Source: Stramenopiles sp. TOSAG23-6 (taxonomy: Eukaryota). From it: a stretch of 64,000 bases of DNA. Both the position numbers and the translations under genes were made by a program. Every line of letters begins with the position of its first letter. The first letter of the stretch is position 1. Under the pieces are notes generated by a model. It searched no databases and was not told the origin of the DNA. It saw only the letters and a program-made list of their open reading frames with translations. Of this stretch, positions 1,250-61,023 are shown in pieces. The DNA lies in NCBI GenBank assembly GCA_900128565.1, contig LT635912.1, forward strand, positions 1 to 64,000, in the 5' to 3' direction.

Positions 1250-1252
1250 GGC

Positions 1253-15246: not shown

Positions 15247-17835
15247 TTACCATTCAGCCCCTGGCCCAAAAAATTCAGCAAGTAGATCTTTATCATGCAG
15301 AATTCTCTGAATAGTTATTTTAGGAACAAATCGGTAAATTCCACGGCGGACATTAGCTCCAGTGTTTATCTGATGTTGAGTCACGGCACTTATAATTGCT
15401 GTGTCTAGGCGAAATTGTTTGCGAGCAAGTTTTGAGTAAAACTTCTTGGCATAAATCAAATTTTCCTTAAGTTTCTTATGCTTTTCTCTATCGAAATGTC
15501 CATTAACGAAATGTATTGTAGTTCCTCTCACATATTGAAGTATATCCTTGTAGGAAGCATCATTTTTCGCTAAACTTAGAATTTCATATATTTCACACGC
15601 TTTTGGGTTCGACTTCCACATTTTCCGAGGTATGTATTTTATAGCTATAGGGTTGTTCAGGATTGCCATAAGCGCCATTTCTTTGTCCATAGAAAATTGT
15701 ATGCTTGTGAATTTCAATGCTTCGCCCTTATTTTTAATTGCTTTTAATTGTACTTCAAAGTCGCCGTTAATTGCCTTCTTTTTTACAAGTTCCCGATTCC
15801 CACGGAGAGATATGTCTGCACATCTCAAGGCAAGGCCATCTCGTTCCACTGCGATCATGACAAGTGTTTTATACACATTAGGTGTAAAATCATTTTTATT
15901 CACCGCACATAGCGCCTTTGGTTTCACCTTTAGAATCTTGGTTACAAATGCAGATGTATTGTGAAAAAATATTTTTTTTTTTTCTGTTAGGTACAAAATT
16001 TAGTACGAAAAAAAAAATTCGAAATTCAAATAAAAATAAAACAAACAGTTCTTTCGGAGTTTTGGATCAGCATAATTAAAAGCTGAAAAAGACTTGGTAA
16101 CAGCAGCCATCACCACCTCTTCATTAGATCGAACAGTTTTATGAAAATCTTTGAGTGAACTCCCATTTCTTTTAACAATTTTTAAAGCCAATTTTGTATC
16201 TTTTTTATAGGCAGGGGGACAAAACTCAATTGCTCCTGCTGCCTTTTTTAATGCCAATGAAATAATCTCATCATCTATTATCCCAGCATAACGTAAGGAT
16301 GAGGCATGGTTTTGAACGGCTTGTTTAACAACTGCTTTATCATTTTGTAGAACAAAGTGGGCGTATCGTAGAACATCGGGGCCGAACTTTACAGCATTAA
16401 TAACAAAAGCTCTATGTATTGTGAAAAAAAAAACTATTTTTTTTAGCGAAAAAAATCGTTAGGTACGGAATTTCGTACGGAAAAAAATGAAATTCAATTT
16501 TGAAAACGTACATCATGTTTAAGACGTGCGGAGGCGTGATTCATTGCCATTCCTTTGGTACGTTTTAAGGCTTCCATCATGTAGTTTGAGAAAATATTTT
16601 TTTAAATTTGATTTGTTTTGTTACAGGTATGACACTTTCTATAAAATAAAAACAAACCACAAAATCCACAAAATCATGAAAAAAAACAAACAAAAAAATA
16701 AAAACAAACCACAAAATCATGAAAAAAAACAAACAAACAAAAAAACGTACATGAAAGTTGAGTTGTCTTTTAATTCGTCAGGTGCAAGTGCAATCACATC
16801 AACATTTTCTGCAAACCATTTTTTCGTGTTTCGTAGAGCATTAAGTACGACATTTGATGATCTCAACTCTTCTGGTACTCTTCGCAAAACATAAATATTT
16901 TCTTTCGTCGAAAGCATAATAATCTCCGTATCACGTTTCAAATGTTCTGAAAGAAAAACATAACTTCTTTTACTTCTCTTGCAAAGGTATTTTCCAACAT
17001 CCTTGTTTTCTTTGAGTCTCCCTAACAGCAACATTTGGGTCTCAAAACTAAATGAGTCAGTATGATACATGTACCAGTCAACTAGTAACACATCAGTATT
17101 TAAGTTGGGGAGCATATTTTCCACACAATTTTTGATGTTTTGTAACACATTAACCTTTCTTTCGCCTTGGAGATTCGCCGGAAAAAAATCGCGACAATGG
17201 TATTTCGCATTACTCCATAGACCAGCTCGAAATAATATTTCTCTGTCACCTCGCAATGACTCAGGCATTGATGTGAAAAAACTGTGAGAACGATTGAACC
17301 ATGTATGACGACTAAAATTCAAAAGAGCAATATTTTCCAAAGCTTCAATGGCAAACTTTCGACGTCGTCGCGCATCAATGGTAAGACGCTCATATAGATA
17401 TGGATTTGTTTGAAGTGTTTTCGTGATCAGAAAGGAAGAAAAATTCAACCATATGGAAGGATTTATTTCCGGGGGGTGGAATATAAATTCTGGATTTGCT
17501 TTAATTCGAGCTGTGAAAGTGTCAATAACGATTTGTTGTACTCTTGGATGATTCTGCATAGCCATGGAGGCGTATTCAAAATGATCAACATTATTACGTA
17601 CCGCATGTAACACCGCATCAAGGGTATTCATTTCTGGGGGTTCTGGGGGAGCGTCGTCGAAAGTTATGCCACCCCAAAAGTCCTCCATTTCTTTGCGTTC
17701 GCGTTCGAGGGCTACACGTGCTCTTTTTTTCGGCGGTTGGAGCGGTTCGGGCGGTTGTTCAGCTGCATGTGCATTTTGTATACTTGAAACAATAAGCAGC
17801 AATAATAAAAGTAATTTGTTGAATGCGCAGTTCAT
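15247..17835 (-). CDS. DUF4116-repeat protein with signal peptide; exons 17835-16751, 16578-16512, 16413-16047, 15953-15247
   Basis: Repeats of AVxxxGxALxYAxxxLxxDxxxV type; three family introns join all four exons in frame. Confidence 0.8.
15954..16046 (-). other. Non-canonical GT-AT intron, 93 nt, phase 1, donor GTTTGT
   Basis: ACT|GTTTGT...GTACCTAAC...CACAATACAT|CT; join KLRKN-SAFV. Confidence 0.85.
16414..16511 (-). other. Non-canonical GT-AT intron, 98 nt, phase 0
   Basis: GAT|GTACGT...CGTACCTAAC...CACAATACAT|AGA; join LKHD-RAFV. Confidence 0.88.
16579..16750 (-). other. Expanded GT-AT intron, 172 nt, phase 2
   Basis: CAT|GTACGT...TTTG-rich expansion...TACCTGTAAC...AATATTTTCTCAAACTACAT|G; join STFM-MEAL. 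Confidence 0.8.
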
Positions 17836-18129: not shown

Positions 18130-19942
18130 TTACAATCGACCTCTCGACACTAAAATTGCTTTTTTTAATCCATTTAAATTTTTACGAATTTTAGCTTTTC
18201 GAAAGTCAATTTGAGCTTTTTTCTGTTTTATTTTTAAACGCTGAGCTTTTTCACGAATAAATGCTTGCTTGCTTCTCTTTTGTATTGTAATGTTTAAAGT
18301 TTTCATTTCTGATACTGTTAATTTCTTTCTTTTTAATTTGGGTACTTTGGAAATAAAAAGTTTTCCAATATGTGGTGGATTCCCACACGGTAAACCGTTT
18401 AATACTGGTCTTGGTGAATTCATTGATATGTTTTTATTTATTCTAAAAAAATATGTAAAATTTAAAATTTGTTAGGTACAAAATTTGGTAGAAATCTTTT
18501 TTTTAATTGATGAAATCATGAAAACGTATTTTTTTCTCTAGGGAATCATAAAACTTATTTCTTTGCTTTCGTTGAAGTGCATATTTTTCAGATATCTGCA
18601 AAATTTCTTGCTTTAATTCTTTGACATCTTCTCCATCAATCACTGGTTGTAACATTTCATTTTCATATTTTTTATTGTCAATCATTGGTTGTAACATTTC
18701 ATTTTCATATTTTTTATTGTCAATCATTGGTTGTAACATTTCATTTTCATATTTTTTATTGTCAATCATTGGTTGTAACATTTCATTTTCATATTTTTTA
18801 TTGTCAATCATTGGTTGTAACATTTCATTTTCATATTTTTTATTGTCAATCATTGGTTGTAACATTTCATTTTCATATTTTTTATTGTCAATCATTGGTT
18901 GTAACATTTCATTTTCATATTTTTTATTGTCAATCATTGGTTGTAACATTTCATTTTCATATTTTTTATTGTCAATCATTGGTTGTAACATTTCATTTTC
19001 ATATATTTTTTCAAAAGGATTGCTGATATTTAACTCTTTCTTTTCTTGCCGTTGCACTTCTGGAGGCGTAAATATCCTTGATTTCATGAGTGATAGTGAA
19101 GGTATAACCGTTGGGGTAGAGTATTTAAGTGGCCCTTTTTCTTTTTTTCTTTCTCTGCTTCTTTTTTCTTTATCATTAATTTCTATATCATACTTATGAT
19201 TATCCTGAATATTTTCTTCCTTTATTCTTTCACTGCTTCTTTTTTCTTTATAATGGAATTCTATATCATACTTTTGATTATCCTGAATGTTTTCTATTAT
19301 AATTTCTGTTTCTGATGTAATTCGAACTATACCTTGACTTGGAACTGTCTTCTTGACAATGCAGAATCCTTCTCGGTTTGTATTACCATACGGAGTGCAT
19401 GGAAGTTGAACTGTCGCTTCTAAAATTAAATAAATGCCCCATAAACTTCTTTTAAGTTCTACCTCCATCGATTTTATGTTATTCGAGTTTTCCCAACCAT
19501 AACCTTCTCGTTTAAAAAGTATTGTGACGGATACTGCATTTTGACTCTCCACTGACCAAAGTTTGACTATTGACAATGTTAGCGGTATAACAGTTCTTCC
19601 TAGTCGAAGTATATCCTTTTCAAATTGCCGAAGTTGAAAAGTAACTGGGAGGGACACATGTGGATTAATTTTACTTATATTTTCTTTGCCGTCATCATTG
19701 ATAAGAGCAACAGCGGTACAAAGGTACCAGAAAACACAATCATCTTCAAGCACAGCTACGACAAGTGGGTCACCAGATACTATTGGGCGTGAGTGAATAA
19801 AAGTTGACAATAAACTTGGACTTTTAGTCCTTCGAATGGCACATGTTGCTATTGAGGATGGAATGATTCCTTCGAGAGGCATAACTTTTGCTAGAAAATC
19901 TACACCCCGGGGCAAATTTAATCCATTACTATTGATAGACAT
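18130..19942 (-). CDS. Hypothetical protein with weak CDC48/PEX N-domain-like region and 14-aa tandem repeats; exons 19942-18530 and 18435-18130
   Basis: Long ORF plus downstream ORF joined in frame by a family intron (LEKK|KNISMNSP). Confidence 0.65.
18436..18529 (-). other. AT-AT intron of the same family, 94 nt, phase 0
   Basis: AAA|ATACGTTTT...GTACCTAAC...ATATTTTTTTAGAATAAAT|AAA; modal family length; an in-frame AC 6 nt further downstream is an alternative acceptor. Confidence 0.72.
18636..19004. repeat. Coding minisatellite, 42-bp unit, about 9 copies (YENEMLQPMIDNKK)
   Basis: Near-perfect tandem array. Confidence 0.95.
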
Positions 19943-25100: not shown

Positions 25101-25652
25101 AGATTTATTAATTTGTCTTGGAATTTTAGAAAATAGACTTACATTAGTAAATCCAGGTCTCCTTTCTGTGTGCAATGCGATAGATGGTGCTATACAGGCA
25201 AGAGTATGTTCAAGCGCCATATTAATGAATATGTCTGATTCATTCTTACCGGCCATGCATGCTGTATGGACATCCAGAAGAGCAATTGATGTTGTACATA
25301 CATCGGATACAGGTTTTTCATGTACTTCGGAGAGAGAATCCAATACAAGTAGAAACATTCTCGGTGTACAGATTCATATAAAATGGCCACAAAATTATTT
25401 TGAATGCTTACTCCAAGGGAAAGAAGTTTTTACTTATGCATGTAGTATTGGAACTCTGGATCGTCGAGTGCAATTACCTGTAATACGCGAACTAGATGAT
25501 GAAATACTTCAACGTTTGAAAGAAGATCCTGTATGTTTTATTTTTTTTCAATTTCGAATTTTTTTTTCGTACGAAATTGTGTACCTAACAATTTTTTTTA
25601 GATTTTTTTTTAGAAATATTTTTCCAAAATACATGGGTGGGCAGCAGAATAA
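22192..25652 (+). CDS. Large secreted protein with coiled coils and possible non-catalytic thioredoxin-like domains; exons 22192-25530 and 25635-25652
   Basis: Signal peptide; two related segments (SYKFRGRMKFVE, AKYVNRMTFAD); family intron near the 3' end gives KEDP|GWAAE*. Confidence 0.65.
25531..25634 (+). other. Non-canonical GT-AT intron, 104 nt, phase 0
   Basis: CCT|GTATGT...TTTCGTACGAAATTGTGTACCTAAC...AATATTTTTCCAAAATACAT|GGG; boundary set by family homology. Confidence 0.78.
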
Positions 25653-32319: not shown

Positions 32320-35300
32320 ATGAAGACAATGTCCGCTTACCAACTCGAACGTGCTGTACAACAAGCTATTGTGGAGGTAAAAAAAGTCTTGGATGTGAAT
32401 CGAAATCCCAAGTACCCTCCACGTGTTCAGCACAAGTACAATGACAAGTTTACTTTAGTCACATTTGGTGCGCGTGCTGCTGCGGCATCACTCAAATCCC
32501 ATTTAAAGGAACTTGGACTTACCGACAGCAAGCTCAAAGTATTACTAGATGCTTCTCGGGGAGGTAAATCAGTGACTCTTGCCTTTGCTGCTGGAGATTC
32601 GATACGTTTCAACCGTAAAGAAGAACGAGAAGTCGTTTCTGGCGATAAGATTGTTACCACAGAAAATGGTTTTTTTGGAAACAAGAAGCAAACTAAAACT
32701 ATCGTCACCACAGTGACAGACTATTACTGGAATATCGAATACCATTGGAAATTATATGCATTCTTTGGTGTTGACAATTCTTCTTCAAGTGTAAACAACG
32801 AAGAAGCAAAAAACACAAAAAAAGAAAATTCAGATAATACAATCACTTTGTTGGAGCGTAAGTCAACTACTTTTGAAATTGTGACTAATTCAGATAAACG
32901 ACCATATAATTCTTCTCGATATTCGGGTCAACCTTTAGAAGTATGTATTGATTGGTTTATTCGCTTATTTGATGAATCTGGAAGTATAAATTTTTCTATT
33001 GACAGAACTTCCAAGAATTGTAAGACACCCGCACAAAATGATGAAATCATTGCAACCAAGGCATTTTTCTTTGATTCTTGGCGGCCTTTTTCAAATGGTG
33101 TTCAACATTTCATAAATAAAATATACAAAGCTACGCAACGCATGGCTAGTGAAACTAAAGGCCAATCTCAATTAAAGGATATGACGAAACATCTTTCGGA
33201 GTATAAAAAATTTCCACTTGTTTTTTCAGTTTTTACTTTTGAAGAAGAAGATGAAAATGGAACGACATCTACTGAATTGACACTTGCTCAAGATGATTTT
33301 TTGCATCTTGTTAAACAACATGATGTGTCTTTAGGAGATACGCTTGAAAGAGTTGATCAAATTAAAACAGAACAGGCGATGGATTTTGGCATAGAAAATC
33401 GATTATTTTTATCTGCAATGTTCATTGAAGGTGTTGGAACTCAGATAGGAAGTATTGTTGAAGGCGTTGAACGAATGTTACGAGATCAAGTCATCGCCGC
33501 TGTTGGTAAGCACATAGAACCCAAAGACTTTTCTGAATATATGGACTTTCATAATAGGATGATTTTTCGTGATCAATATCGTCCACGTGGTTTCTGTTAT
33601 GATATCCGCAGAGAAGGACATGCACCTCAAGGTTCCTTAAGCATTGAAGTTAATTCAAATGATAATAATACGGATTCATGCATTCAAACTCAAGTGATGT
33701 ATGCGAAATCAAAAGAACCAATGAAATTTCCATTAAGTGCGGCCTCTGAGGTTGCTATGCTTGGAGATCGGTATCTCCATGCTGCGATTTTGCATCAATT
33801 TTCATATCAAAAACCCTCTCTATTAAATTTGTGTGTTCGAGCTCGTCAATTTAGTTCATTTGTTTTAATGATTGGAAATATTTCAGGTCCAAATCTTTTT
33901 ACGCCGTCTGCTGCAATTATTTTAAAAAATAAGGATGTATGCTTTCATCATTTTGTGTACAGTTATTTTTTTCTCTAAGAAAATTGTGTACCTCACGACT
34001 TTTTTGTAAAGTTTATTTTATAATATTTTTTCACAATGCATGACTTGAAGATTCCATTATTATTAGAAACAATCCCGACACCAAAGGAATTTAAAGATGC
34101 TATTGACTCTTTATCACCTGAACAAAAACGATTTTGTAAGGCCTTTCGTTCAATGCAGTTGGCAAGTACACTTTTTGGAGTTTGTGTTATTCAAATTAAG
34201 CCTCAATTGGAGAAAGTTCTTAATCTTCCACCTGATAGTTTAACTAAACAAATTAAGTTAACGCAAAATCTCACTGAACTTTTTATAAAGTATCAAATAC
34301 CATCCGATCTGCTATCATTTGCTGGTGATGCCAGTGAATCTTGCGATGCTAAAATAGCTGCTGTTGAAAAACATGTATCTAGTGTGTATGAAGTGATTCA
34401 AGCAGAAAAAGACAAAGAATTAAAAGAAAAAGAAGAAGAAAGGAAAAAGGCTAAGGAGAAGGAATTATTAGCTTCCGCAAGAAAAGAAGCAGCTCTGATG
34501 GACAGTGCTTCACAGTTTGGTGGGTTTGGTGGCGCGCGACCAAGGATGAGTAAATCCCGTGGTGCTGTTCCAAAATCACTATGTATGAAACCTCAAAGGA
34601 TGATGATGCGCAGTATGGCCGCCGCCGGCGCCGCCCCCCCAGCTCGAGCTGTACCCTATGGACTAGGAGCTGCAAATGCTTTACATTCGGTTGATACCCT
34701 TTCTTCTGTCGGCGGCGCCGCACCACCAGAAATGGAAATGGATTTCGGGCCCTCACTCGAAGAGATGAGTTCAGAAGCACCACATGAACGACAATCTCAT
34801 GAAAGTCAAGGAAGTAAATCCGACAAAGTATCGACAGCAAGTGATGGATCTTTAGGCACTCCAATGGGTTCTTCGTCAAGTACAAGTATTGATGTGACCA
34901 AGGTACCTGGTATGCTTGACAAGCGTATGGAAAAATTTGATGCTGATGGCTCAGTGAGACCAACAAAGATAAAAATAGGCCCAACATGGAAATTAAAATC
35001 CCAGGATGGTTTATTGTCAAAGCCTAAAAATAAGAATATAAATAATACTTGCCAGTCTGGGTTAAAAAACAGTGCTTTCGATCTTTTGGATGCTCTGACT
35101 TTATCTGGCGGGTTAAGTATTGATCATGCCAGTCTCCATGTCATCATTGCTGCTACACATTACTTTGATAAAACACTTATGGATACTATAGTTAAAGGTA
35201 ATGTAAATCCCATCGAAAAAGTTGAACGGACTAGCCTAATAGTTGCAAGTACAATTCAAGGGAAAAGAACTGGAGATTTGATTAAAAACGACCAACTCGA

Positions 35301-37391: not shown

Positions 37392-37511
37392 TAAATGTGT
37401 GTGTTACAAAAAATCAATATAATAACTTGCATTTGATATTTACTTCAGTGTTTACTTCATTAATTAACAAAATATTAGGTGTTTTTTTATATCACCAAGT
37501 GTACATTTAGC

Positions 37512-39076
37512 TCAAACAGCTGTAACTGTACATCCGTCACAATTACCAGAAAAGCAACCTGTATCGGTAGGTCGAGTTCTTCCTAGAACTTTCTCCAAAT
37601 CTTCTTCCTTCATATTAGCATCATATACATCACCAGCATCGTATCCAGCAAATACTTTAGCTTGGATCTCTACCTGTGCATCTGCAGGTACGAGATCCAT
37701 CGGAATCGCAACTCTATTGATAATCTTGATACCGCTATTAACAATCGCGTTGTATTTCATATCACTCATACTGACGAAATTATCAATTTGGGTAATGCCA
37801 AGCCAGTGCAATGCATCAGGCATCATCGATTGAAATCGAATATCTTGTACTCCAGCAACCCGCTCAGTACAGTTAAAATATTGACTTGCAGAATCTCCTC
37901 CTTCTTGCCGTTTTCTTAAATTATACACTAGATATTTAGTGACTTCACCAAGGCATCTACCTTCCTTTCGAAAATAAACACATGTATTTTGGAAAAATAT
38001 TTCAAAAAAAAATCGTTAGGTACAAACTTTCGTACGAAAAAAAATTAAATTGGAATTTGAAAAAAAAAAAAAACATACAGACACCAGCTCCGCCTTTTTG
38101 AGCAGTTTCGACACATAGTTGAATGGCATGAATTAAATATGGTCGACAGGTGCAAATGTCTGATCCAAAAACATCAGAACCATTGCATTCATCGTGTACT
38201 CGAACTGTAAGTTCTTTATTTGGATCTGTGATTGCTTTCACATCCCCAAATATGTATATAGTAAGCCCCCCAATGTATTGTGAAGAATAATTGTAGGATT
38301 TTTTTTGTTAGGTACGGAATTTCATATGAAAAAAAATTAAATAAACATTTAATTGTAAAACCATACATTGGAGGTAGAAAACATTTGAGATCTGGACGTG
38401 TCATTAACTCAGGATACATTCCATTCGTCTGTTCAAATAAACTTTGTCGGAGATGGTTCTCTTGACATCCAAAACGTCGCGCAATCTCTGGGAGGTACCA
38501 AACTGGTTCGATGGCTGCCTTTACAATGTTAACTTGACCGTTACTGTTAGCTACAACTTTCCCATCTACTTCCATTTTACCTGATTTAACTAGTTGAATA
38601 ATTTCAGGGACATCAATGTGTGCCATAGTCACGGCAATAGTTGGCCGGATATCGTATCCTTCCTTTAATAACGCACCAAAGTTGGATACAATTTCATGAC
38701 CAAAGGGGTCGAAAGCTCCAACTTTACTCGGATCTGCCCACTGTGGAAACGGTCCAATTTTCACTGGAGGTACTGTTGTTTCCAGTTCAGGAGTGTGATC
38801 ACGATCGACCTTGTCTTGTGCTGCAGCTAAGCCGCGATAAATACAATATGAGCCACTATGAGCACCAATGACATTTCTTTGAAATTTTTTACGGGTGTCG
38901 ACACTTGCAACAATTGGGCCACGCTTTGAAGCGTCTGATTCACCCCAGTTGATATCTAGTTGACCAAGTCGGCCTTTTTTTGGATGAGTTGTTAGAGAAA
39001 TATATGATAACTGTGGTCTCCTTGTGGGAGAACCGCATGTTTCTGTTTTTTTTTTTTTACGAACTGGTGAACTCAT
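37512..39076 (-). CDS. URG1-type GTP cyclohydrolase II family protein (GTP_CH_N plus GCH II domains); exons 39076-38367, 38272-38079, 37981-37512
   Basis: RNVIGAHSGSY, LPPIGG (spliced), RVHDECNGSDVFGSDICTCRPYL, YFRKEGR (spliced), SMSDMKY. Confidence 0.92.
37982..38078 (-). other. Non-canonical GT-AT intron, 97 nt, phase 1
   Basis: TCT|GTATGT...GTACCTAAC...CCAAAATACAT|GT; restores GAGVCVYFRKEG. Confidence 0.92.
38273..38366 (-). other. Non-canonical GT-AT intron, 94 nt, phase 2
   Basis: AAT|GTATGG...CGTACCTAAC...CACAATACAT|T; restores FLPPIGGLTIYIFG. Confidence 0.92.
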
Positions 39077-39417
39077 GAGTATAGTATTGGTTAATTCACA
39101 AAAAAATGCCGTATCTTGGAATTAAACACAGTTATTTTTCGGCAAGACGATACTACGAAGTCAAGAAACTTCTTCGAACGAAACTGAAATTCGACAAACC
39201 TGCTTTTGGACTTAAAAAATTTGACAACTGCATTTTGACAGCAAGATTTCACATTTTTGCGAGGTTTGCAAGCCAATCGTTCGTTGTTTGTGGTTTTGGT
39301 TTGCGTTATCTTATACATTATTAATAACAACACGCTTGCTCGTCTGTTTATTCGAAACGCTGTTGGATTCATTCCTGTGTTTTGGTATAGTAAACTTGAT
39401 CTTTACACTATAGTTCA

Positions 39418-40545: not shown

Positions 40546-40800
40546 TATAAACCAATGCTTTTAGCACTTGTAAAAAAAAAATCTATAAATTCCTTAACTT
40601 GAGTCTAATCTCGAAATCGGTGTAATAGTTTTGGAAAAGAGAGAGAGAGAGTTAGATATATTTATTTGTCTTATGAATCTAAAAAATAAAATAATATACA
40701 CTTTGATCAATATTACAAAAAATTGCTTTACCAATTGAAATATTATACACATTAAAGTATAGAACTATAAAACTGACTCTTGGTAAATTGCTTTACCAAT

Positions 40801-43519: not shown

Positions 43520-46500
43520 ATGGGACGCATTGATTATATTGTATGTGAAAATTTTAAATCCTATGCTGGAATACAGAAAATCGGTCCTTTTAAGGGTTTC
43601 ACCGCCATCATTGGTCCGAATGGCTCGGGTAAGTCAAATCTAATGGATAGTGTTTCGTTTGTCCTGGGAGTATCATCTCAAAAGTTACGTGGTAAAAAGT
43701 TGCGTGATTTGGTATTTCAAAATGAAACTCAAAAACGTGGTCTGAGTGAAAAGAATGGTGCTTATGTTGCACTAACTTACATTGTGTCAGAGGGTGAGTT
43801 ATCAGGAATGGAAGAAGGTGACCGTTTGGAGTTCAAACGTTCTATTTCTCCTGCAGGCAGTAGCAGCTATCATCTTAATGGCCGTAAAGTTGGTTGGAAT
43901 AGATATAATGCGACACTAGAAAATTTAGGATTATTGGTTAAAGCGAGGAATTTCTTAGTTTTCCAAGGGGACGTGGAGTCTGTAGCTATGCGTTCTCCAA
44001 AGGATTTGACCTCACTCTTCGAAAAAATCAGTGGTTCTGAAGAATTCCGTGAAGAATACGATACATTAAGTAAAAGTAAGTCCGCAATAGATAATGAGAC
44101 AGTATTTGCATGTGGTAGGAAGAAAGCTCTTGCGGATGAAAAGAAGAGAGCTAAAGCTGAAAAAGAGGAAGCCTCTCGGTGGAAGTTACAAACTGAAAAG
44201 TTATCCGATACTAAACGTGAGTTTTATTTATATCAACTTTTCCATATTGAAGCTGAGCGCAAAAGCGAACAGAGTACAGTTGATGATATTAAAGAAAAGA
44301 AAAAAGAAATTGAAGCAAAATTAGCTGCGGAGAATGCACAGATCAAATCTGCTAGGGCTGAACGCGCCAAGGCTTCACGAATATTCCAGCAATCTCAAAA
44401 AAAACTTGATAAAGCTCGACAAGCTGTCGATAAAGATCAACCTGCTGTGATTAAGCTACGTACTGAGATAAAACATAGCACAACACGAGCTCAACGTCTT
44501 AAAAATATTGGTATTAAAATTAAAGCTGATCATGATAATCAACTACAAGTGCTAAAAGATATGGAAGTAGATGTCGAAGCTGTACGTTCAATGCAGACCG
44601 AGTTTGAATCTCAAATACACGAAGAAAGTTCACAGCGACCAGAATTACATCTCACAAAAGAACAAGAAGCATTATACTCTGAAACGAAAGAAGCTGCACG
44701 GGCTAAAACGACAAAACTTCGCGTTCGCCTTGAAAAAGTTGAGAGAGATCAACAGCAAGATACTGACAGACTTCAGCGTTTGCAGGGAGAAGATTCGGAA
44801 CAAAGTGATCGTGTTAGATCTCAACGAGAAACTATAGCAACACTAGAAACTCGACGAAAACAAGTTGCGACAGCGATTCAACGAGATGAAGAAAAATGTT
44901 CAGAAGTGACTGAGAATATCAATACAATGAAAAAAAATATTGAGGAAAAGGAAGCGACATTTACAAAAAACTCTGACAATATTAAATCTGTCAGTGAACG
45001 CCTAGGACATGCAAAGGATAGTAAACGGCAAACGTCTAAAGAACAAAAAGATTCGCAATGTTTAGAAAGATTGCAGCGTACATGTATGTTTTATTTTTTT
45101 TTTTAAAACAAAAAATCGATTTTTTTTTCGTACGAAATTTTGTACCTAACAAATTTGAGTTTTTTTTTTAAATATTTTTCCAAAATACATTTAAAGGTGT
45201 CCACGGGCGCCTTGTAGATTTATGTAGACCAACTCAGGAAAAGTATAATGTTGCAATTACTGTAGCCATGGGAAGATTTATGGATGCGATTGTGGTGGAT
45301 ACGGAACAACTAGGTTTCGATTGTATACGATTTATGCGAGAACAGCGTTTGGGTCGAGCGAAATTTTTACCTCTCGACAAATTAAATCCAAAAATGATCA
45401 ATGAACGACTTCGTCAATTAGGTAGTTCTTGTCATTTGGCATTCGATGTCGTTCGATTTGATCCGATTTTTACGTTGGCTATTCAATATGCTTGTAGTAA
45501 TACTGTAGTCTGTGATGATTTAAGTGTTGCACGTCGTTTATGTCACACGGACGGACGAAATTTGAAAGTTGTCACTTTACAAGGTTATATGATTGCAAAA
45601 AATGGAAATATGACTGGAGGATTAACTGCGTCAAATATAGACAGAGCTCGACGTTGGGATGAACGCGAATTTCAGAAAATGAGGAAACAAGTAAAAACCT
45701 TGAAGTCACAACAAGCTGAATTACAACGTGAACTGGGAGGGGGTAGCAAAGTAGCGAGACATCGTGGGCGTATTGGTTCACTCATTGCTGAATTACGTGC
45801 AAGCGAATCCTCTCGTGGAACGTTAGAGAGCAAACTCGAATATGCTAAGAAAGAATTACAATCACAAACAATTCCAAAATTGAAAAAACTTCAAACGCAG
45901 TTACAAGAAGCCGAGAGTATTCTAGGTGAAATGCGACCTAAAAAACAGAAGTTAGAAGCTTCAATTGGAAAACGATCGAAAGTTATTGCTGATTTGAAGA
46001 AAAAAATTGCTTCGACAGAACGTAGTCTTTTTTCACAACTATCTAGTGATATTGGAATTGATATTATGGGAGCAACAGGAAGTGTTGCCGATTACGATGA
46101 ACAAAGGCATGAACGCCAAAGAGAAGTTGCTAAGGGGCGAGCTTCTTTAAAAGACCAATTAACGAAATTGATTGCTCAGCAGGATTACATGGCTAAACGA
46201 GCAGATAAAATTTTGTCTAAAGTAAAGCGATCTGAAAAGCATTACGCTACTGAAGAAAAACAATTAAAGAAATCAAAGAATGCTCTTGAAAAAGCCGAAG
46301 CAAATCTTGCTTTATTGAAAGACACAGTAGAAGGTTTGAAAGAAGAATGTAAGGTATTAGCACAAAAAAAAGAAGAAAAAGAAACGGAAGTCAAATTGTT
46401 TACGAAGGAAAAAACGGCAATATCTAAAACTCGAGATGGTTTTGTAAAAGAAATTGGTTCGCATGAAGCTCGAGTGGAACGTATGCGGGCTCGATTACAC

Positions 46501-47840
46501 ACCGTTCTTCAGAAAGCTCAAATGGAACAGGTTGAACTCCCATTACTTGATTGTGATGATTCAGATGAGGATGATGTAGATGATCCGATGGACACTGACA
46601 GATCTTCTATGTCGCGTTCGCAATCTCAGTCAGATTTTGGAATTTCTGGTTCTGAAAGTCAAGATGGAAGTAGTGTAACATCAGGCTCGGCCACTATGAG
46701 GTTTAGTCAACGAATGAGTACTGGCGTACGACGTAATCGTAATATTGCCGCACAGATTGATTTTTCAGCATTAAAACGAAATCGTGATGTAGAATTATCG
46801 CAGAGTGAACACACGGTAATTCATAAACAATACGTAGCTACCATTAGAGAAATTGTTGGTGATTTAGAGACAATAAAGCCAAATATGCGAGCTTCAGCGG
46901 CATATGACAAAGCTGATGAAGATCTCACGAAACAAACTGCGGAATATTCTACAGTCAGAGAGACACAAAGAACGACTGATAAAAAGTTTGAAGAAATACG
47001 AAAATTTCGCCACGCAGCATTCATGGAAGCATTTGCGCATATATCTACGGTAATTCCTGCTGTGTATAAAGAACTTACAAAAAGTCCTCTCCATCCAACA
47101 GGTGGTTCTGCTTACTTGACATTGCAGAACCAAGAAACGCCATATCTTGGAGGTGTTAAATATTGTGTTCTTCCTCCAGGAAAGAGATTTCGTGATATGG
47201 AACAGTTATCTGGTGGTGAAAAAACAATTGCAGCTTTAGCTTTATTATTCAGTATACATAGTTTCAAACCTGCTCCATTTTATGTAATGGATGAAATCGA
47301 TGCAGCGCTTGACAATGTGAATGTTCAAAAAGTTGCTAACTTTATTCGCCTACGTAGTAAAGGGAGTCCGTTTTCATTTCAATTTCGTATCTAAGTTTTT
47401 GTTTTCGTAGATAATGTTGTACCTAACATTTTTTTTTTGAAATATTTTCTCAAAATACATGTATTCATTTAGGAAATGCGAAGCTTCGTGGAAGTATTAA
47501 TACAGACAGTGACGCTAATATTTTAAGTATGACTCAAAGTCAAAATGAAAATGAAAATGACTTGTTGGTATCAAAACCTGAAAAAGGTCTTCACTTTGAA
47601 GGTACACAGTTTCTTGTGATTTCACTAAAAGATTTGTTTTACAGTAAGGCAGATTCATTAGTTGGTGTATGCCGCGATGAGAAAAAATGCTGTTCGGTAA
47701 CAATGACGTTAGATCTCACTAAATACGAGCGCAGTAAGGAAAATGATGACACGCAAAATAACCAACAAAATATTGTCAATGAGGCTATCCAGGATGATGA
47801 TGGCGAATATTCTCTCATAAACGCCAGTCATAGATATTAA
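43520..47840 (+). CDS. SMC1: Cohesin subunit SMC1; exons 43520-45083, 45191-47365, 47461-47840
   Basis: [27 protein letters not shown], hinge [34 protein letters not shown]. Confidence 0.97.
45084..45190 (+). other. Non-canonical GT-AT intron, 107 nt, phase 1
   Basis: CAT|GTATGT...TTTCGTACGAAATTTTGTACCTAAC...CCAAAATACAT|TT; restores [12 protein letters not shown]. Confidence 0.9.
47366..47460 (+). other. Non-canonical GT-AT intron, 95 nt, phase 1, donor GTCCGT
   Basis: GGA|GTCCGT...GTACCTAAC...CTCAAAATACAT|GT; links in frame to the terminal QFLVISLK exon. Confidence 0.85.
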
Positions 47841-50756: not shown

Positions 50757-50786
50757 TGATAAAATAATATAATTGTTTTCTTTTTA

Positions 50787-53700
50787 TTATCTTTGTTTGT
50801 CTTTTCTTACATTAACTAGCAAAAAATATGCCACTATTCTGAAAAGTAAACCAAATATAATAAGGCAGATTATATCAAAAGCAAAATCAGGCTTCCGATG
50901 CTCCTCAGGGGCATTTTTGTCATATTTACTCATGAGACAACTAGCATCATCGGAATTACCACAGTTGTCCCAGTCCATAAAACAACCATCTTTCTCTCGA
51001 AGTCTTTCAGTATTCTGATTCTGATTATTAAAACTGTCAATACATTTCTGGAGTACTGTAGTTGGAAAATCAGATTCGTGGCCAATACCCATTTCTATCC
51101 AAGTCAGTGCTCTTGCGGACCACCTACTATATGCCCAATATGCGAACTTGCCAGCCTTTGGGACATATCCACCAAAGAGATTAATCAATACTGCAAATAT
51201 GACAGAAGTTAACGTAGCAAGTGACAAATCAGTTTGAAATGCACAGCCAACTGCGTAACCCATTCCAGATACAGTCCATACAACACAGAGAGCCCATTGT
51301 AGATATGAGCTTGTTGGGCCTGCAACATCTACAATGAGTGCTACAGGTGCGATAAAACAAACAGCCCCGATACACTGGAGGGGGAAATCAACCAAAACTA
51401 CTGCCAGAAAATACGCAAGTTTATTTACACCAGCACTTGCTTCACGCCAAAACACAATCTTCTTTTGACCACAGAATGATACACAAGAGACAGATGCTGC
51501 ACAGACACCAAGAGCCATTGTCATGAAAAAACCAAATGGGCCCAATTCATTTCGAAGAGGTTCAAAGCATATTTGTGTAAAAATATTCTTTTTGTACAAT
51601 TTGTTAGGTATGGAATTTCGTACGAAAAAAGAAATCGAAATGGAAGAAAAATAGAAACATACATTTCCATTCAGCACCCGATGGGCAATTTTTCGAATAT
51701 TCATTGGCACCTCCTCTTGGCTCAATTAACAGTGGTTCAGATCCAAAGATGATAGCAATAACAAAACCATCAAATACAAATGCAAGTAAGTCAAATCCCA
51801 ATTGGTATGTGCGAAAAAAACGAATTCTAATATTTTGTACAATAAAGGCTCTCAATTGAACAAAAAAAACAGGAGCTTCTTTCGACGTATCTGACATTGT
51901 TTTGTTGTTTTCTGGTGTAAGTTTTGTATCTGACTTCGTTTCCGTTTTCATTTCCTGAAATGCTTTTGATAATTGGTTAGATGCAAGACGAGATGCATTA
52001 ATCTGGGATTTCACATTTTTTGTAATAGTGCTACTTTTGCTTTGACCACCATCATTTTCAATTCTACCGCATAAAACATCCAACACAAAATCTGCGAAAT
52101 TGTCATCAGAATCTTTTTGGTACCCCATTTTTGCAAAGTGAGCTTCCGCGAGGCTAGCTTGACCTAAATAAACAGTTTTACCACCATATCCAAGTAACAT
52201 CAATGTATCGATTTGATTGTATATTTCAAGCCGAGGTTGATGTAGTACACTCACGACAGTAACTCCACCATTTGCAATGGTTTTCAATGCTTTCATTACC
52301 CCAACTGCTGTACTCGAATCTAAGCCACTCGTTGGTTCATCTAATAAAATAGCTAAAGGATCCATTACCAACTCTAATGCAATATTGACTCTTTTTTTCT
52401 GTCCGCCACTAATTCCTCTTCTGTACTCATCTCCAATGATGACGCCTGCAACGTCTTGAATGCCCAGAACATTCAGTACAGCTTCGACTCTATCTTTAAT
52501 ACTTTTCTCTGATACTTGTCTTGCACTTAAACGCGTTTTGGCAGAATGTGTTATGGCTTCTCGAACTGTGAGTTCTGGATGCATGACATCAGATTGAGGC
52601 ACAAAACCAATACGTGACTTAAAATCTGTTAAACATCCTTCTTTTTCATTGATAAATACTGTACCATCAGTATGCTCCAATTTCCCCGCAATGATATTAA
52701 GAAAAGTAGATTTCCCCGCTCCACTAGCACCAAGAATACACATTAAATTACCAGGTTTAATTTCGCCATTCGTCCCAGATAAGCGAAACTTCTGCGATTG
52801 TTTTTTTTTGATACAACAACCACAATATTTATATTGAGTTGGAATCTTCAATGCGAGGGAATGAAATTTAATAGATATCGAATCCTTTTTCGTTGTAGAG
52901 ATTTTTTCGACTTTACTTTCTTGAGTTTTATTTTCTTGAGTTCCGAGATTTTGCATTTCAACTTGTGGTTGTTGGGAAACTTTACTTTGTCCTTTTCGAA
53001 AAAAACATACCAAAAAAAATTGTCCGCCCACTAAAACAATTACAATAATAAGCAAAAATGGTTCTGAATTTGATTTTGCCCCTTCGGCGCAAATGGATAA
53101 TTTCCCACATTTTTTTGGAGTTTTTGATCCCCTTGGACAATAATAACCTTTAGGACAAATTGTTTTAGTACCTGCATATTTGTCACAATAGTACCCAGAC
53201 GGACATGCCACAGGATATTGATTTTCCTCGCAGTGTAAGCCTGGAGCACATGCAGTCAATGTGACGATACATTGAGATAAATCTCCAGCTTCTTGATAGA
53301 TGTGTCCTGGTTTATGAGACACCCATTTATATGGATCCTTACAAGTATTTTGGGTGGTTGCAGAGGCGTTTCCTTCACAACTACCTAAAAAACTTCGAAA
53401 TTCATGACTGTTCATTGTGGCTTTTGCTTTTGTGTTTTTTTTTTCTAAATCACAGACAGATAATAATTGCTCGCGAAAGAAAAGTATTAGAAATGTGTCC
53501 TTTTCGTGGGCAGAGTTAAAATCAGCACCATCTATTGGCCGTGTGCACACAGCTTTTGGCTTCTGACTCATGGCATGATACAGTTCAAGAAGTAGCGTTC
53601 GTGAAGCAGTGACATCTTTACACATACTGCACTCGTTAGAAAAGTTACTTGAATTATCAGAAACACTCGTATCACCCATTTTTTCAAAGAATATTCTTCC

Positions 53701-54234: not shown

Positions 54235-56109
54235 ATGGTTCATTTCTTGACTACATTGATATATCTTTTGTATTATCACTGCATACATGCAAATGATGAC
54301 CAATGTAATGAAGCTATAAAAAAGCAAAAGATAAACGTGAATAGTTCAGAGTGGAAACTGTCACCAAATCGTGTTGTTATGGACAGTAACTTTAAATGGG
54401 GTCGAGTTGTAGTTCCCATCTGGACGTCAGTATTTTTAGGCACTAATGATTCTCTCCCACACTTGGATAACACTTTACAAATTTTATCCTCATTTGAGAG
54501 TGATGAACTTGCGCTTGTTACAGTCGTAGGTGGTGGCGCTTATCTCCGTATTCTTGAACATATGGAATTTAGTTCTATTCATTTCTTTGACGCAAACGTT
54601 AACGAGTTAAGTAAACTTCGACTTGTTCATGACGATATTATCAAATATGACTATGATACATGGATAGCAAATGGTGGAATGCAGTCTGTAGCTAATAAAA
54701 TTTCCTCACTGCGGGAAAAATTTTACCTGCCAGCCCCACTTCTAACAGCAGGTGTAACCCTGCATCCTGCAACTGACTTTGAGTGGCCGATTCCTGGTCA
54801 GAGTAGTTATTATGATCCATTAGGTCGACGAAATCCACTTTGGTCAATTTTCCCTCCTTTATCTTACCCAGAGTATGCATGGAAACCAACTCGAAAGGGT
54901 TATGAGAGAGTACGCAGACAATTGAAATATCGTGTGGCAAATGAATTTTATTTATCAGTTCCTTGTGGCATCATTCCACCTAATATTCTTTCAATAGTTT
55001 ATGTTGATGGAATCAAAATTCCAAAATCAACAATACGTGCGGTTTCACGTTCGGGTGATGCTATTGGTTTATGGTCGATGGTTGAAGACCAAAAATTACT
55101 CGGTAGGGGAAATAATTCAGATTGGTCAGATTCCCATTTCTTTTGGGAGCTCGCAGTTCGTTGGAGGATTGAAAGTAGCACTACAGTAATAAATAATACT
55201 AGAATCGGTATGGATAATATTGTAAATAATGTAATGCATATTTGGGCAATTGAAGATATAAATATGATGGGAACAATCTACGATTGGATGTTTACAAGTA
55301 GCATGGAAGCATCGTCATTTGCTTCGTCTACTGTGACGACTTCAACACCCAATAAAAAGGAGACAGACAAATCTTTCAATGAAATCATTGTTTTCCATAT
55401 TCTACTTGGTAAAGCAACTACTAAAACGAATTGTTCAAAACGCGAAGAATTATTTATGAATGCGTTGATTCGAGCTGTAAAAGAACCACATGTAAGAAAT
55501 GTTCTAGTTACTGAGCATAACACCTCTTCAAAACAATTTGATATTTTAACTAATCCATGTGCATTAAATGCAGCTAATATCAGAAAACTTATCAACAAAA
55601 CATTGTCATTAACACCAGACAACATCAAAACGAACATAATAGCTACTCGTTTTCTACCTGGTGGTGGTACTCATGATAGAAATGTATTATTTGATATTGC
55701 AGTAAATGAAGGAATTCCATCAAAAAATGGTAATAAAAAAGAAACTTTCCTTGAAGATAATAATAAATCTATGAGACCAGCAACTATTCAACTTCAGATT
55801 GATGAAAACACGAAAAAAAGGCCTATTATTTTTCCATATGATGGGTCTGTAAAAGTATTACAATCTCTCGCGGCTGCTGCGTGCATGGATATTCCTCTTA
55901 CTGATAAATCATGTATGTTTTATTTTTTTTAATTTCGATTTTTTTTTCGTACGCAATTTTGTACCTAACAAAAATATTGAATGTAAAATATTTTTCAAAA
56001 TACATGCATAGACCAAATTATGAATGAAATGAAAAGAATTATAAAAGAAGATAAAAAATCTTCTGCGAGGGCGATTCGCCCTGAAAAAGAGAGCAAGGTG
56101 ATTCAATAA
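54235..56109 (+). CDS. Hypothetical secreted protein; exons 54235-55912 and 56006-56109
   Basis: Signal peptide, long ORF; join DKS-CIDQIM. Confidence 0.7.
55913..56005 (+). other. Non-canonical GT-AT intron, 93 nt, phase 1
   Basis: CAT|GTATGT...GTACCTAAC...AATATTTTTCAAAATACAT|GC. Confidence 0.85.
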
Positions 56110-56183
56110 GGATAATTACAAAAGTATTACTTTAATAATGAATAAGTAAAAAGTTTGTTAGTTTTGGTTTGTCTTCCTTTTTT

Positions 56184-57192: not shown

Positions 57193-59675
57193 ATGAGATT
57201 GATGAGACTTTTTATATATCATTTTGCATTCGTTCACACTGTTGCAGCAGAAGCATCTTTTGTGTTAAAAAGTTATGAATGCGTCGCTGGCTTCGATTGT
57301 ATGTATCAAAACAGTTGTGCTAATGATGAAGGAGTTTCTTGTCCCATTGGCCGGTTCTGTGGCAGACCCAGTTCTTTCCCCAATGGACTTTTTCAATGTG
57401 ATGGTGACCATAATCAAAGTTGTCCAGGTAGTGAATTCCCAGATGATAGGTGGAGAACTTCAAAGTGTGCCACGGGTGCATACTGCCCGACGACAGTAAC
57501 AAATCAAAAATGTGAAGCTGGATACTTTTGCCCAAGAGGGTCTGTCAAAAGAGTCAAGTGTTCAATAGGTTCAATATGTGGCGAAGCATCACACTTTCCA
57601 ATTGGATTTTTGCTGTTTGGTTTCGCAATACTTTTGTTTATTTTTTATATTTTATGCCGTCGCTTTTGTCTCACGACAAAAATTGGTCATACGATTTCAA
57701 ATGATGGTTGCGAAAACAAAAAAGAACTTCCAGTTTCTAAGAAACTGAAAATGCCATTTCCTCTTCAATTCGAATTTGATAATATATGCTGGAACTTTCG
57801 AGATAAGCCTATTCTTCGTGGTGTATCGGGTTCTGTCAAAGCAGGTGAAATGATTGCAATTATGGGTCCATCAGGAGCAGGTAAAAGTACACTAGTAAAT
57901 TGTCTAATGTCACGGTATACCCCCAGTACCGGAACAGTAACAATAAATGGATACAAAGATATTGAATTCTCTAGTATATGTGGAATAACTGGTTATGTCC
58001 CACAAGATGATATAATGTTGGCTAAATTAACAGTCAGGGAGAATTTAATGCATTCAGCAAATACTCGAATAAATTCTCAAGTAAAAGCAAATTACTCTTC
58101 AAAGGCTCGTGTTGATTCTGTACTCACCAGTCTAGGTCTAGAACATGTACAACATTGTATAGTTGGAGATACCCGTAAGCGTGGACTAAGCGGTGGTGAA
58201 AAAAAACGTGTATCGATTGGTCTTGAACTAGTGGCTAGTCCGTCTGCAATTTTTCTTGATGAGCCTACGACAGGGTTAGACTCATCCGCGGCTGAAGTTG
58301 TGATTAATCAATTAAAACTCTTTGCTAATGAAGGACACGCGGTTATAGTAATTTTACACCAACCACGTGCTAGTATATTCAAACAATTCGATAATATCCT
58401 TTGCTTAACATCTAGAGGCGAAACATTTTACTTTGGAAGTCCTCTTAAAGTTCGTGACTTTTTAAACCAAATACAAAATCCATGTCCATCGGGGAAAAAT
58501 CCAGCAGATCATTTAATTGACATTGCAACGAAAAAGGGTAAAGTATCAATGACATCTACCCCAACAAGTATTTCGGATAAATCTAAAACAATCTCAGAGA
58601 ATACAGTAAAATTTGAAGATCCAAGATTAAACATCAAAGGAAAATTAGCGAGTTGGGGAGCCCAGTTTTTATTCTACTGGAAACGTTCCTGTGTACAACA
58701 GCTACGAGATTCCATGGCACTGTATCTTTATTGTGGTCTTGTTTTCCTCATGGTTGCTTCTCTCTCAACTGGTTTTTCACCTTTTATCCAAGAAAATCTG
58801 GAGAGTGTTTACAAACCACCCCTCGGCAAATCATTGAGAGATTATTGTCCACCACACAATAAAGCATGTTCTGGCAGCATTAACGACGATGGATTAATAC
58901 AAATGATGTTTTTCTACTGTATGTCAATTGGATCAATTGGAATGCTTGCTGCATCTCGAACATTTTACAGAAGTGAAATGATAGTAATGAAAAGAGAATC
59001 AAATATTGGTCTATCCTCATCTGCTTGCATCATTGCAAAAGTTTTTGCTGATTTAAATGTAATTATATTACTATCATTGCTCGCATCAGGACTATGGCTT
59101 GCCATGGGTTATCCGGGTGGACCTGTTCGTTGGTTTGTTCTTACTTTTTCATTGTTGTTTACTTGCTACGGATGGGGATATTTTGTTTCACAAATTGTAT
59201 CCGATGATATGATTATGACAGTATGTATGGTGTACGTTTTCATACTAAATTTTGTACCTAAGATTCTTTTCATCCTAGTGTTTCTCTTTTGCTCACATTT
59301 TCTAAAAATAATTTTACTTTTCGAATGATTCCAGTTGTCATATTCTAATTTTACATTTTTTCTGACGTATAATTTAATTACAGCACTGCTCTTGGCTTAT
59401 CTGCTTTTAATGGTGTGAATCCAAAACTTGTGGATGTTCCTTGGCCGTGGAGAACCATCTGGGGCATGGGATATAGTAGGTGGATTTCCGAAGCCATATT
59501 TTCCACCTTTACAATGCATGATAGAAACAGTGGCTTACCTGTGCAATTTGCTGCATCGAGATTTGGCTATGATGTCTCCGACAATCAATTTATTCTTGAT
59601 ATTGTAGTTGTAGTGATACAAGGAACCTTATTGAGAATATTTACAGGATTTTTGATTGTTAAAAAGAATACATAA
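57193..59675 (+). CDS. ABCG half-transporter with Cys-rich N-terminus; exons 57193-59231 and 59384-59675
   Basis: GPSGAGKST, LSGGEKKR, FLDEPTTGLD, LHQPR; join VCMV-TALG. Confidence 0.92.
59232..59383 (+). other. Canonical GT-AG intron, 152 nt, with a degenerate family-derived 5' half
   Basis: GGT|GTACGTTTTCATACTAAATTTTGTACCTAAG...TTCTGAC...TTACAG|C; restores frame. Confidence 0.85.
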
Positions 59676-59795: not shown

Positions 59796-61023
59796 TCACG
59801 CATTTGCTGCTATTTTATCTGCTTCACCTACTATTATCGTTGATTCTGTCGATATTGCAAAATCTTCGGCCATATCCAAACTAGAACTTCTTTCTTCTTC
59901 TTTTGCTGCTTGTACTGTTGTTTCTGCTTCTTTCAATTTCAAATTTGCAACTGAAAAAACAAATGTTTCCTCTTCTTTCTTCCTCTGACAACGAAATTTC
60001 CAACGGACCTGATTTACATTTGTTTTATCTGGATCATTAGATGTCACTTCGTATCCTTCAAATGTTGGTATACCTCCTAACCATTTTTGCTTTTTTGTTT
60101 TTGGAAATCCACTTTGAATTACGCTATTTCGTGCAATTTCAGATATATCAGTTGTACTAAGGCACCATATCTGTCGAGCTATGGAATATTCTTCTAGTAG
60201 AGGTGCATCTGATAAATGAAATATCATAGGATCATCCGTGGATAAACTAACATTTAACCCTCGCTTGAAGAATTTATAAAAGGGTTGATCTTCGTATCTC
60301 ATGAATAGAACATTGTTTGATACTGGTGAAACTGCGAGCCCAATATTATCTAGATAGTAAAGATATTGCATAACTATATCATTTGCTAATCCAATTCCGT
60401 GATTAATTCCATTAGCCAATAAATAAGTAGTACAAAGATGATGTTTGGAACCACTTTCACCTGCATGTGGACGCAATGAAAAAGTATTCATTCCTTTAGA
60501 ACGCCTTAATGAATTCAATCGGCTAATATTTGCATAAAGGTAATATAATTGATAAGAATATGGAGGATTTTGTTCCGATGTCCAATCTTTTGGAGTTGTA
60601 ACCTTTCCATCAATTGTTGCAAGAGGGAGATCAAGTAAGCTTTCATCATCGACAGAGTCAAATCCTGAAACATCTTTTAGAAATTCTGAAAGCTCCGGAT
60701 ATTTTTTTGGTTTCTCAGTTGCATCAAAAAGAGGTTGAAATATATTATATATAACTTCTTGATATGATGTTACTTTTTTCAATTTGTGAAATATGCGGTA
60801 AATGTATTGTGAAAAAATATTTTTACTCGAAATATTTTGTTAGGTACAAATTTGGTATAGAAAAAAATTAAATTTAAATTTTGAAAACATATATTCTTGG
60901 AATTTGAATAAGCCATCGATTGTGTGGCTGCTGGACTAGCTTATTATTGAGAGCCCATTTTGCAAGTTTATCCCATGCATCAATGTTATCACCATAAATG
61001 GATAAACGATACTCTGCCCACGT
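59796..61023 (-). CDS. AMP deaminase, C-terminal part only; exons about 61023-60893 and 60801-59796
   Basis: AEYRLSIYG, WLIQIPR, FDSVDDES, LRPHAGESG, SLSTDDP; N-terminal half not present upstream. Confidence 0.88.
60802..60892 (-). other. AT-AT intron of the same family, 91 nt, phase 2
   Basis: AAT|ATATGTTTT...GTACCTAAC...CACAATACAT|T; restores QIPRIYRIF (an equivalent AT-AC register is possible here). Confidence 0.85.

Follow-up and report, generated by a model that had tools for sequence, protein, structure and literature searches.

Two short introns in a GTP cyclohydrolase II (GCH II) gene belong to a repeated family of introner-like elements that end in AT rather than AG. The gene, of the URC1/Urg1 type, has its coding sequence at 39076-37512 on the minus strand of a 64-kb stretch of contig LT635912.1 from Stramenopiles sp. 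TOSAG23-6 (positions 1 to 64,000; "the window" below means this whole stretch). We consider it highly probable that the two are true introns of this gene and introner-like copies, that the major spliceosome removes them with an AT acceptor, and that the family spread in the manner of a miniature inverted-repeat transposable element (MITE). RNA contigs join exons exactly across two family members, four junctions are exact at the protein level, and removal of the elements restores reading frames.

Two introns split conserved motifs of a GCH II gene

By domain content, the interrupted gene is assigned to the URC1/Urg1-type GCH II family. Exon 1 encodes PF12471 (GTP_CH_N; 1.3e-78) and exon 2 encodes PF00925, the core motifs are kept, and the predicted product is collinear with 7ej3_A, matching PDB 7ej3/7eev over its full length. 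This is the architecture of URC1/Urg1-type proteins of the uracil catabolism pathway, from which the protein differs by a Cys-rich C-terminal tail of its own (37512-37580, minus strand; ...GCFSGNCDGCTVTAV / ...TGCFSGNCDGCTVTAV) that occurs neither in the seven aligned homologues nor in PDB 7ej3.

Splicing at GT...AT rebuilds conserved motifs at both junctions. Scripted removal of the two introns gives a protein of 457 amino acids whose junctions, ...CFLPP-I-GGLTIYIFGD... and ...GGAGV-C-VYFRKEGR..., align without a gap to seven of seven homologues. These comprise stramenopile, fungal and one bacterial member, one of them named 'Uracil-regulated protein 1'; P0008 is 79% identical over exon 1, and the remaining homologues are 48–58% identical. 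Searched singly against 7ej3_A, exon 1 aligns to residues 15-222, exon 2 to 224-286 (its final V being 287) and exon 3 to 290-419 (its first V being 289), and therefore each split codon supplies exactly one residue, 223 and 288. A reading made earlier from the sequence alone had placed both introns within conserved GCH II motifs and had named homologue alignment of the spliced protein as a check; the alignment bears it out at both junctions.

AG acceptors do not serve this gene. Neither intron contains an AG between its branch-like motif and its 3' end. Downstream of intron 1, the first AG lies 38 nucleotides (nt) into the exon, out of frame, and downstream of intron 2 the AGs lie at +17, also out of frame, and at +21, in frame, where removal of 21 nt would delete VYFRKEG; here the arithmetic of the sequence-only reading was correct. 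Its claim that only AT boundaries rebuild the motifs survives in part: an AT acceptor paired with a GTATG donor does so and the AG alternatives fail, but it ignored cuts that are equivalent by sliding, to which we return below.

A repeated intron family with its own splice signals

Both GCH II introns are copies of an introner-like family with the consensus GTAYGTTTT...GTACCTAAC...AATACAT. About 14 genes in the 64 kb carry copies, of which 17 are complete and one more is truncated at the window edge; the genes include SMC, two ABCG transporters, ATG13, CobW-like, GPR180-like and DUF4116 genes. As in introners, the genes are unrelated and the similarity is confined to the intron. Copies measure 91–107 nt, apart from one of 122 nt and one of 172 nt that carries an internal tandem repeat.

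This repetition is far above expectation. Chance would give 1.13 occurrences of the motif TACCTAAC in the window and 0 of the full pattern GTATG..TACCTAAC..ACAT, where we count 17 and six, and an nhmmer profile built from six copies returned 15 matches with E <= 1.4e-7 in the 64 kb. One occurrence of TACCTAAC, at 28988 on the plus strand, stands opposite the UBA1 open reading frame (ORF) without element context and was set aside as a chance match. The core pattern also matched one separate metagenome contig (L001), which carries a single copy, again in frame, while a second element pattern had no match in viral contigs or prokaryote genomes.

Conservation concentrates at the ends and at a branch-like core. 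We aligned 14 complete window copies with the L001 copy (n=15): T at +2, G at +5 and the terminal AT are invariant (15/15), and TACCT.AC is invariant except for one A-to-C change. The conserved blocks are GTAYGTTTT at the 5' end, ...TTTTTTCGTACGAAATTTTGTACCTAAC in the centre and ...AATATTTTTCMAAATACAT at the 3' end; conservation does not extend into the exon flanks, and two subfamilies can be seen. Across the window all 17 copies end in AT (16 CAT, one TAT) and 15 begin with GT, the 5' hexamer being GTATGT in six and GTACGT in five. In the 14 copies measured, the branch-like TACCTAAC, or its variants TACCTCAC and TACCTGTAAC, lies 33–46 nt from the 3' end.

Removal of the elements restores reading frames. 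When the best (longest) upstream and downstream ORFs were compared by script, they joined in phase across 13 of the 14 copies tested, against one third expected (P = 6.1e-6). The exception is the copy at 25531-25634, where the best frames differ and five codons precede a possible stop. Four junctions are exact at the protein level, among them that of an AMP deaminase fragment, in which the exons flanking 60802-60892 align to 2a3l_A residues 368-411 and 413-688 with one residue (412) between them.

RNA joins exons across two family members

Seawater metatranscriptomes contain the spliced products. Ten RNA runs from four studies match parts of 37400-47399, and contigs of four runs were aligned to 37400-57300. 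For intron 1, X2 and X7, two runs on polyA libraries from separate studies, each yield contigs that connect 38272 to 38367 with 66 and 76 nt on the shorter side, skipping exactly 94 nt with a placement ambiguity of 2 nt. The sequence-only reading had called for a check on cDNA, and this junction matches its AT boundary within that slide. For the ABCG element, a 355-nt contig of X3 connects 51567 to 51662, its shorter arm measuring 134 nt, and leaves the 94-nt element out. Exons are thus ligated exactly in RNA for two family members, 38273-38366 and 51569-51662.

Junctions that fell at repeats were treated with caution. One X7 junction was discarded there during mapping. Several apparent junctions between different element copies (such as 38012 to 38298, or 45110-45156 to 47417-47431) were rejected as repeat-induced artefacts: they have only 20–26 nt on the shorter side and mostly foreign letters between.

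The element family is large and transcribed. With 574 contigs of X1 and 765 of X2 aligned, hundreds of RNA contigs match its core alone, and the bins holding element cores (37982-38063, 45084-45190) reach word depths of 881–4064 in polyA metatranscriptomes against 0–5 in most other bins. This abundant RNA represents unspliced precursors, retained introns or stable excised introns. Hundreds of RNA contigs part from the window sequence exactly at element ends.

The AT acceptor emerges from the pooled introns

Single junctions can be drawn in several ways, because the bases around both intron ends repeat. Intron 1 can be read as GT..AT, TG..CA or AT..AC; intron 2 as GT..AT, TG..CA, TA..TG or AT..GT; and the RNA-confirmed ABCG intron as GT..AT, TA..TG, TG..TA or AT..AT. 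Since any one intron is ambiguous by 1–2 nt, the AT acceptor was established by pooling. Of all 17 introns, 15 allow GT..AT, 13 TG..CA and nine AT..AC, and AT..AC was rejected as a universal boundary because it is available in those nine copies only. The GT..AT reading also sets the conserved GTAYGT at the canonical donor position.

AGs upstream of the AT end are passed over. In the ABCG intron at 51569-51662, an AAG between the branch-like motif and the AT end is skipped, and use of the TAG in 16414-16511 or of the GAG in 45084-45190 would disrupt the frame.

AG acceptors are not abolished here: one ordinary GT-AG intron, supported by homologues, coexists with the AT class. It lies in the second ABCG gene at 59232-59383. 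P0244 (98% identity) matches its spliced reading, ...MIMTVCMVTALGLSAF..., exactly, and P0245 (47% identity) conserves it. A competing pair, GT59221..AT59378, is in frame but deletes conserved residues, and both proteins back GT59232..AG59383 instead. A GT-AG intron in the same window shows a conventional spliceosome to be present, and GT..AT accounts for 15–17 of the 18 introns recognised. The first 31 nt of 59232-59383 resemble the element's 5' end and core (GTACGTTTTCATACTAAATTTTGTACCTAAG), and its 3' part, ending in ACAG, is unrelated; decay or recombination of an element copy, with a change to an AG acceptor, may have produced this intron.

A probable spliceosomal mechanism and its rivals

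We propose that the major (U2-type) spliceosome removes the elements, with the AT at the element end replacing AG as the 3' splice site. Each copy would carry its own yeast-like signals: GTAYGT(TTT), GTACCTAAC 33–46 nt from the 3' end, a T-rich stretch and a terminal ...AATACAT, with AGs between the branch site and the terminal AT passed over. Set against U2-type introns, 15 of 17 copies have a GT start with a U1/U6-compatible hexamer and removal from RNA is exact for two copies, while the 3' site is not YAG. An Rfam scan of the 64-kb window gave no match, including none to a small nuclear RNA, and a transfer RNA scan of it was likewise empty.

Transposition of a MITE-like element is the most likely route by which the family spread. 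Both ends of each intron would then come from the element's short terminal inverted repeat (GTAT...ATAC) plus a duplicated AT, and splicing would take out the element together with one AT copy, restoring the reading frame. In 12 of the 17 copies the last two bases of the upstream exon are AT (background 0.095, P = 2e-9), which fits GTAT...ATAC insertion with a 2-bp AT duplication. We put the duplication step forward tentatively because the upstream AT is missing from the other five copies and no empty site came to light.

Several points weigh against this account. The +1 position need not be G, as two copies have A there (ATATGT, ATACGT), and given the slide ambiguity the chemical cut sites are deduced from the pooled set. 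Compared with the yeast U2 branch consensus, TACCTAAC contains an additional C, and signal conservation could stem partly from the young age of the copies rather than from selection. An inverted repeat of only 4–6 nt, together with the five copies that lack an upstream AT, leaves a model of target-site duplication and terminal inverted repeat (TIR) weak. The RNA consists of assembled contigs at a depth of ~3–8, from which no unspliced-to-spliced ratio or efficiency is obtainable, and the libraries may contain DNA. Intron 2 is without a reported RNA junction; the mapping skipped the repeat at 38037-38086 and gives no evidence either way, so its placement is a homology-based prediction.

The same precise excision could instead be the work of the minor (U12-type) spliceosome, an explanation to which we give little credence. 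U12-type introns tolerate AT-AN and GT-AT ends, with 7 GT-AT cases in PMC1557818. The very strong conservation of the 5' and branch motifs is a U12-like habit, and AT..AC can be drawn in some copies. The motifs themselves differ: the 5' end is GTAYGTTTT where the U12 consensus is RTATCCTT, TACCTAAC departs from the U12 branch motif TCCTTAAC, and it lies 33–46 nt from the 3' end where U12 branch sites typically lie at 10–26 nt. Eight of the 17 copies, moreover, cannot be AT..AC.

Excision without a spliceosome, either guided by RNA structure of the inverted ends, a route proposed for Amoebophrya introners and for euglenid nonconventional introns, or by somatic DNA removal as in the internal eliminated sequences of ciliates, merits marginally less credence still. 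The intron ends do form an inverted repeat, (AT)GTAT...ATACAT, which pairs in five of eight minimum-energy folds, and short direct repeats flank the boundaries as in Amoebophrya introners (PMC7789003). We nevertheless doubt that an RNA stem defines the cut, because fold energies are no better than those of shuffled sequences (z from -2.2 to +1.0 in eight copies) and changed bases at +3/+4 (GTACGT, GTTTGT, GTCCGT) bring no compensating change at -5/-6. Conserved yeast-like 5' and branch motifs also speak against this explanation, and transcription of the elements, whose core fills hundreds of RNA contigs, argues against their removal from expressed DNA.

A shift of the true cuts by one base, to TG...CA, would keep splicing spliceosomal and make the AT acceptor a misnomer; we hold this to be highly unlikely. 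It would yield the same mRNA in 13 of the 17 introns, and RNA cannot tell slide options apart. TG..CA is impossible in the other four, 47366-47460, 51569-51662 (the RNA-confirmed ABCG intron), 60802-60892 and 18428-18529, whereas GT..AT fits 15 with GTAYGT in its canonical place.

Barely credible is an absence of functional splicing, with pseudogenes, or with junctions that come from intron-less alleles or from the DNA that shallow metatranscriptome contigs may include, since all interrupted genes of the 64 kb would then be pseudogenes despite long intact ORFs on both sides, frames are restored in 13 of 14 copies, and the intron 1 junction recurs in polyA libraries of two studies.

Relation to known introns

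Literature searches returned no GT-AT intron class and no account of splice sites in MAST-3, Nanomonadea or Incisomonas; all they yielded were isolated, rare GT-AT introns of animals and plants. Among the closest known systems are intron-poor genomes of the Saccharomyces type, which use GTATGT, TACTAAC and YAG. The window shares with them few short introns, a near-invariant GTAYGT and a CTAAC-type branch ~35–45 nt from the 3' end; it differs in the extra C of its branch motif (TACCTAAC), in YAT instead of YAG, and in ignoring upstream AGs. For MAST genomes, the main texts of PMC5778133, PMC8163842, PMC12614181 and bioRxiv 10.64898/2026.04.17.719054 are silent on splice sites; their supplements could hold intron statistics.

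GT-AT is a rare yet workable pair for both spliceosomes (PMC1557818). Animal introns of this kind, U2-type in DGCR2 and U12-type in DEADC1 and SLC24A6, have the same terminal dinucleotides and complete the second step with AT (PMC1557818). They are single exceptions among about 10^5 introns, in contrast to nearly every intron of the window.

Introners are another close system. Those of Micromonas, Aureococcus, dinoflagellates, fungi and others are likewise near-identical short introns in unrelated genes that bring their own splice signals (PMC7789003, PMC11282704, PMC12130899). They have short inverted ends and a direct repeat, and splicing takes out the element and one repeat copy (PMC7789003), as we propose here. 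Described introners are GT-AG or use other accepted pairs, whereas the window family ends in AT in 17 of 17 copies and has a TIR of only 4–6 nt. One introner survey accepted AG or AC as 3' sites and discarded unfamiliar ends unless they had RNA support (PMC12130899); because of such a filter, a GT-AT family in an uncultured protist would be easily missed.

Other lineages also depart from GT-AG. Amoebophrya (Syndiniales), also a marine protist, has repeated introns with inverted-repeat ends, 3–5 nt direct repeats that overlap the boundaries and make the cut ambiguous, and non-GT-AG boundaries (PMC7789003). Its introns show no preferred dinucleotides and have 8–20 nt hairpin-forming repeats, and the organism apparently lacks U1 (PMC7789003), whereas the window family has uniform GT..AT ends, yeast-like 5' and branch motifs, and weak end pairing without covariation. 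Appendicularian tunicates (Fritillaria and others) form an entire lineage whose non-canonical intron ends are believed to be handled by the major spliceosome; 95% of tunicate introns do not follow GT/AG (PMC13326754). These are animals with AG-A(N) patterns (PMC7789003, discussion); the window keeps the 5' GT and differs only in the last intron base. Nonconventional introns of Euglena are also among the closest systems (PMC12501133).

A possible genome-wide intron type

The odds lean slightly towards GT...AT being the default intron type throughout the genome of a MAST-3-like lineage. A burst of MITE-like introners would have seeded thousands of genes, their own terminal repeat would provide the 3' splice site, and the major spliceosome would have adapted to ligate after U at -1 and to disregard upstream AGs, while still handling a few AG introns. 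The AG at the intron 3' end is among the most conserved of eukaryotic signals, and the window family changes only its last base. Few lineages are known to break this rule throughout (appendicularian tunicates, Amoebophrya and euglenids), and the present case looks simpler. If true genome-wide, it would offer a natural system with rewired second-step recognition of the 3' splice site, useful for asking how the second catalytic step picks that site and how a transposon brings a non-standard one into thousands of genes.

Such genomes would also be annotated poorly. With AG or AC acceptors assumed, gene finders and introner surveys would mis-model nearly every split gene, here about 14, which may contribute to the low gene counts and completeness scores of uncultured marine grazers. 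RNA support from public seawater metatranscriptomes makes the claim testable genome-wide without culture.

Table. Exons of the GCH II gene, copies of the element family and the GT-AG intron, in window coordinates
Feature	Position	Strand	Length (nt)	Gene	Ends and motifs	Remarks
Exon 1	39076-38367	-		GCH II	ends ...CFLPP	ATG at 39076; 236 codons plus 'at' of a split Ile codon
Intron 1	38366-38273	-	94	GCH II	GTATGG...GTACCTAAC...CAATACAT (last bases ATACAT)	phase 2
Branch-point-like motif, intron 1	38307..38314	-		GCH II	TACCTAAC	branch A to 3' end, 35 nt
Exon 2	38272-38079	-		GCH II	GGLTIYIFGD...GGAGV	finishes Ile; ends with 't' of a split Cys codon
Intron 2	38078-37982	-	97	GCH II	GTATGT...GTACCTAAC...AAAATACAT (last bases ATACAT)	phase 1
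Branch-point-like motif, intron 2	38015..38022	-		GCH II	TACCTAAC	branch A to 3' end, 34 nt
Exon 3	37981-37512	-		GCH II	VYFRKEGR...	finishes Cys; stop codon at 37514-37512
Family member	219..340	-	122	CobW-like	GTACGT...CTTGCAT	open reading only with acceptors 219 and 234; 219 gives ...ADVVILNKKSLV...
Family member	3108..3198	+		GPR180/TMEM145-like	GTACGT...TATACAT	
Family member	7720..7813	-	94		GT..AT	
Family member	15954..16046	-	93	DUF4116	donor GTTTGT	
Family member	16414..16511	-	98	DUF4116		internal TAG out of frame if used
Expanded family member	16579..16750	-	172	DUF4116	GTACGT...TACCTGTAAC...AAACTACAT	internal tandem repeat; frame read by eye
Degenerate copy	18428..18529	-			ATACGT...AAACAT	phase 0, in frame; status uncertain
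Family member	25531..25634	+				near the end of a 1125-codon ORF; short last exon plausible
Diverged family member	33937..34041	+			GTATGC...TACCTCAC...AATGCAT	
Family member	45084..45190	+	107	SMC	GT..AT	links ORFs of 522 and 733 codons in frame
Family member	47366..47460	+	95	SMC (same gene as 45084..45190)	donor GTCCGT	
Family member	51569..51662	-	94	ABCG transporter	GTATGT...AAATAT	in frame; RNA-confirmed
Family member	55913..56005	+	93		GT..AT	
Family member	60802..60892	-		AMP deaminase fragment	donor ATATGT	options AT..AT, TA..CA, AT..AC
Family member	62309..62402	-		ATG13	GTACGT...AAATACAT	
GT-AG intron	59232..59383	+	152	second ABCG gene	ends ...TTAATTACAG	

Host and neighbouring genes

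The window is gene-dense, with 30–40% G+C (2-kb windows) and the standard code. The best match of the UBA1 ORF (82%) is the EukProt protein GSMAST32...1945 and that of the ABCG ORF (98%) is GSMAST32...1953; the next matches of both are stramenopiles at ~47–55%. We tentatively take the GSMAST32 label to denote a MAST-3 (Nanomonadea) gene set, and on that reading of the label the organism would be a MAST-3-like marine stramenopile. UBA1 itself (28972-32115, minus strand) is a single uninterrupted ORF of 1047 codons, yet its closest database model, P0124, from the label series to which the 98% ABCG match belongs, has 863 residues at only 82% identity; the public P0124 model may be mis-spliced.

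Element copies can cluster, and one stretch of element-like sequence lies inside a coding region. The DUF4116-repeat gene (15954-16750, minus strand) holds three family introns, of 172, 98 and 93 nt, within ~800 nt. An element-core-like stretch, CCGTACCAAATTTTGTGCCTAAC, at 48186-48249 on the minus strand falls within an open 472-codon ORF with a PhyH-like domain and may be an exonised or partial copy. At GCH II intron 1, the exon flanks are complementary (CCTCCAAT / ATTGGGGGG; 38263-38376, minus strand), extending the end pairing to 12 bp (-19.4 kcal/mol, z = -1.9); no other copy shows this flank pairing, which probably arises by chance from the PPI/GG codons.

The AMP deaminase gene (59796-61095, minus strand) is incomplete. 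Homology begins abruptly at ...AEYRLSIYG, near residue ~368 of 2a3l_A, and the catalytic domain lacks its N-terminal half. At this point the ATG13 ORF, also on the minus strand, ends (stop at 60989-60991, with the two frames offset by one). Truncation of the gene, a rearrangement or a chimeric assembly could each account for the fragment.

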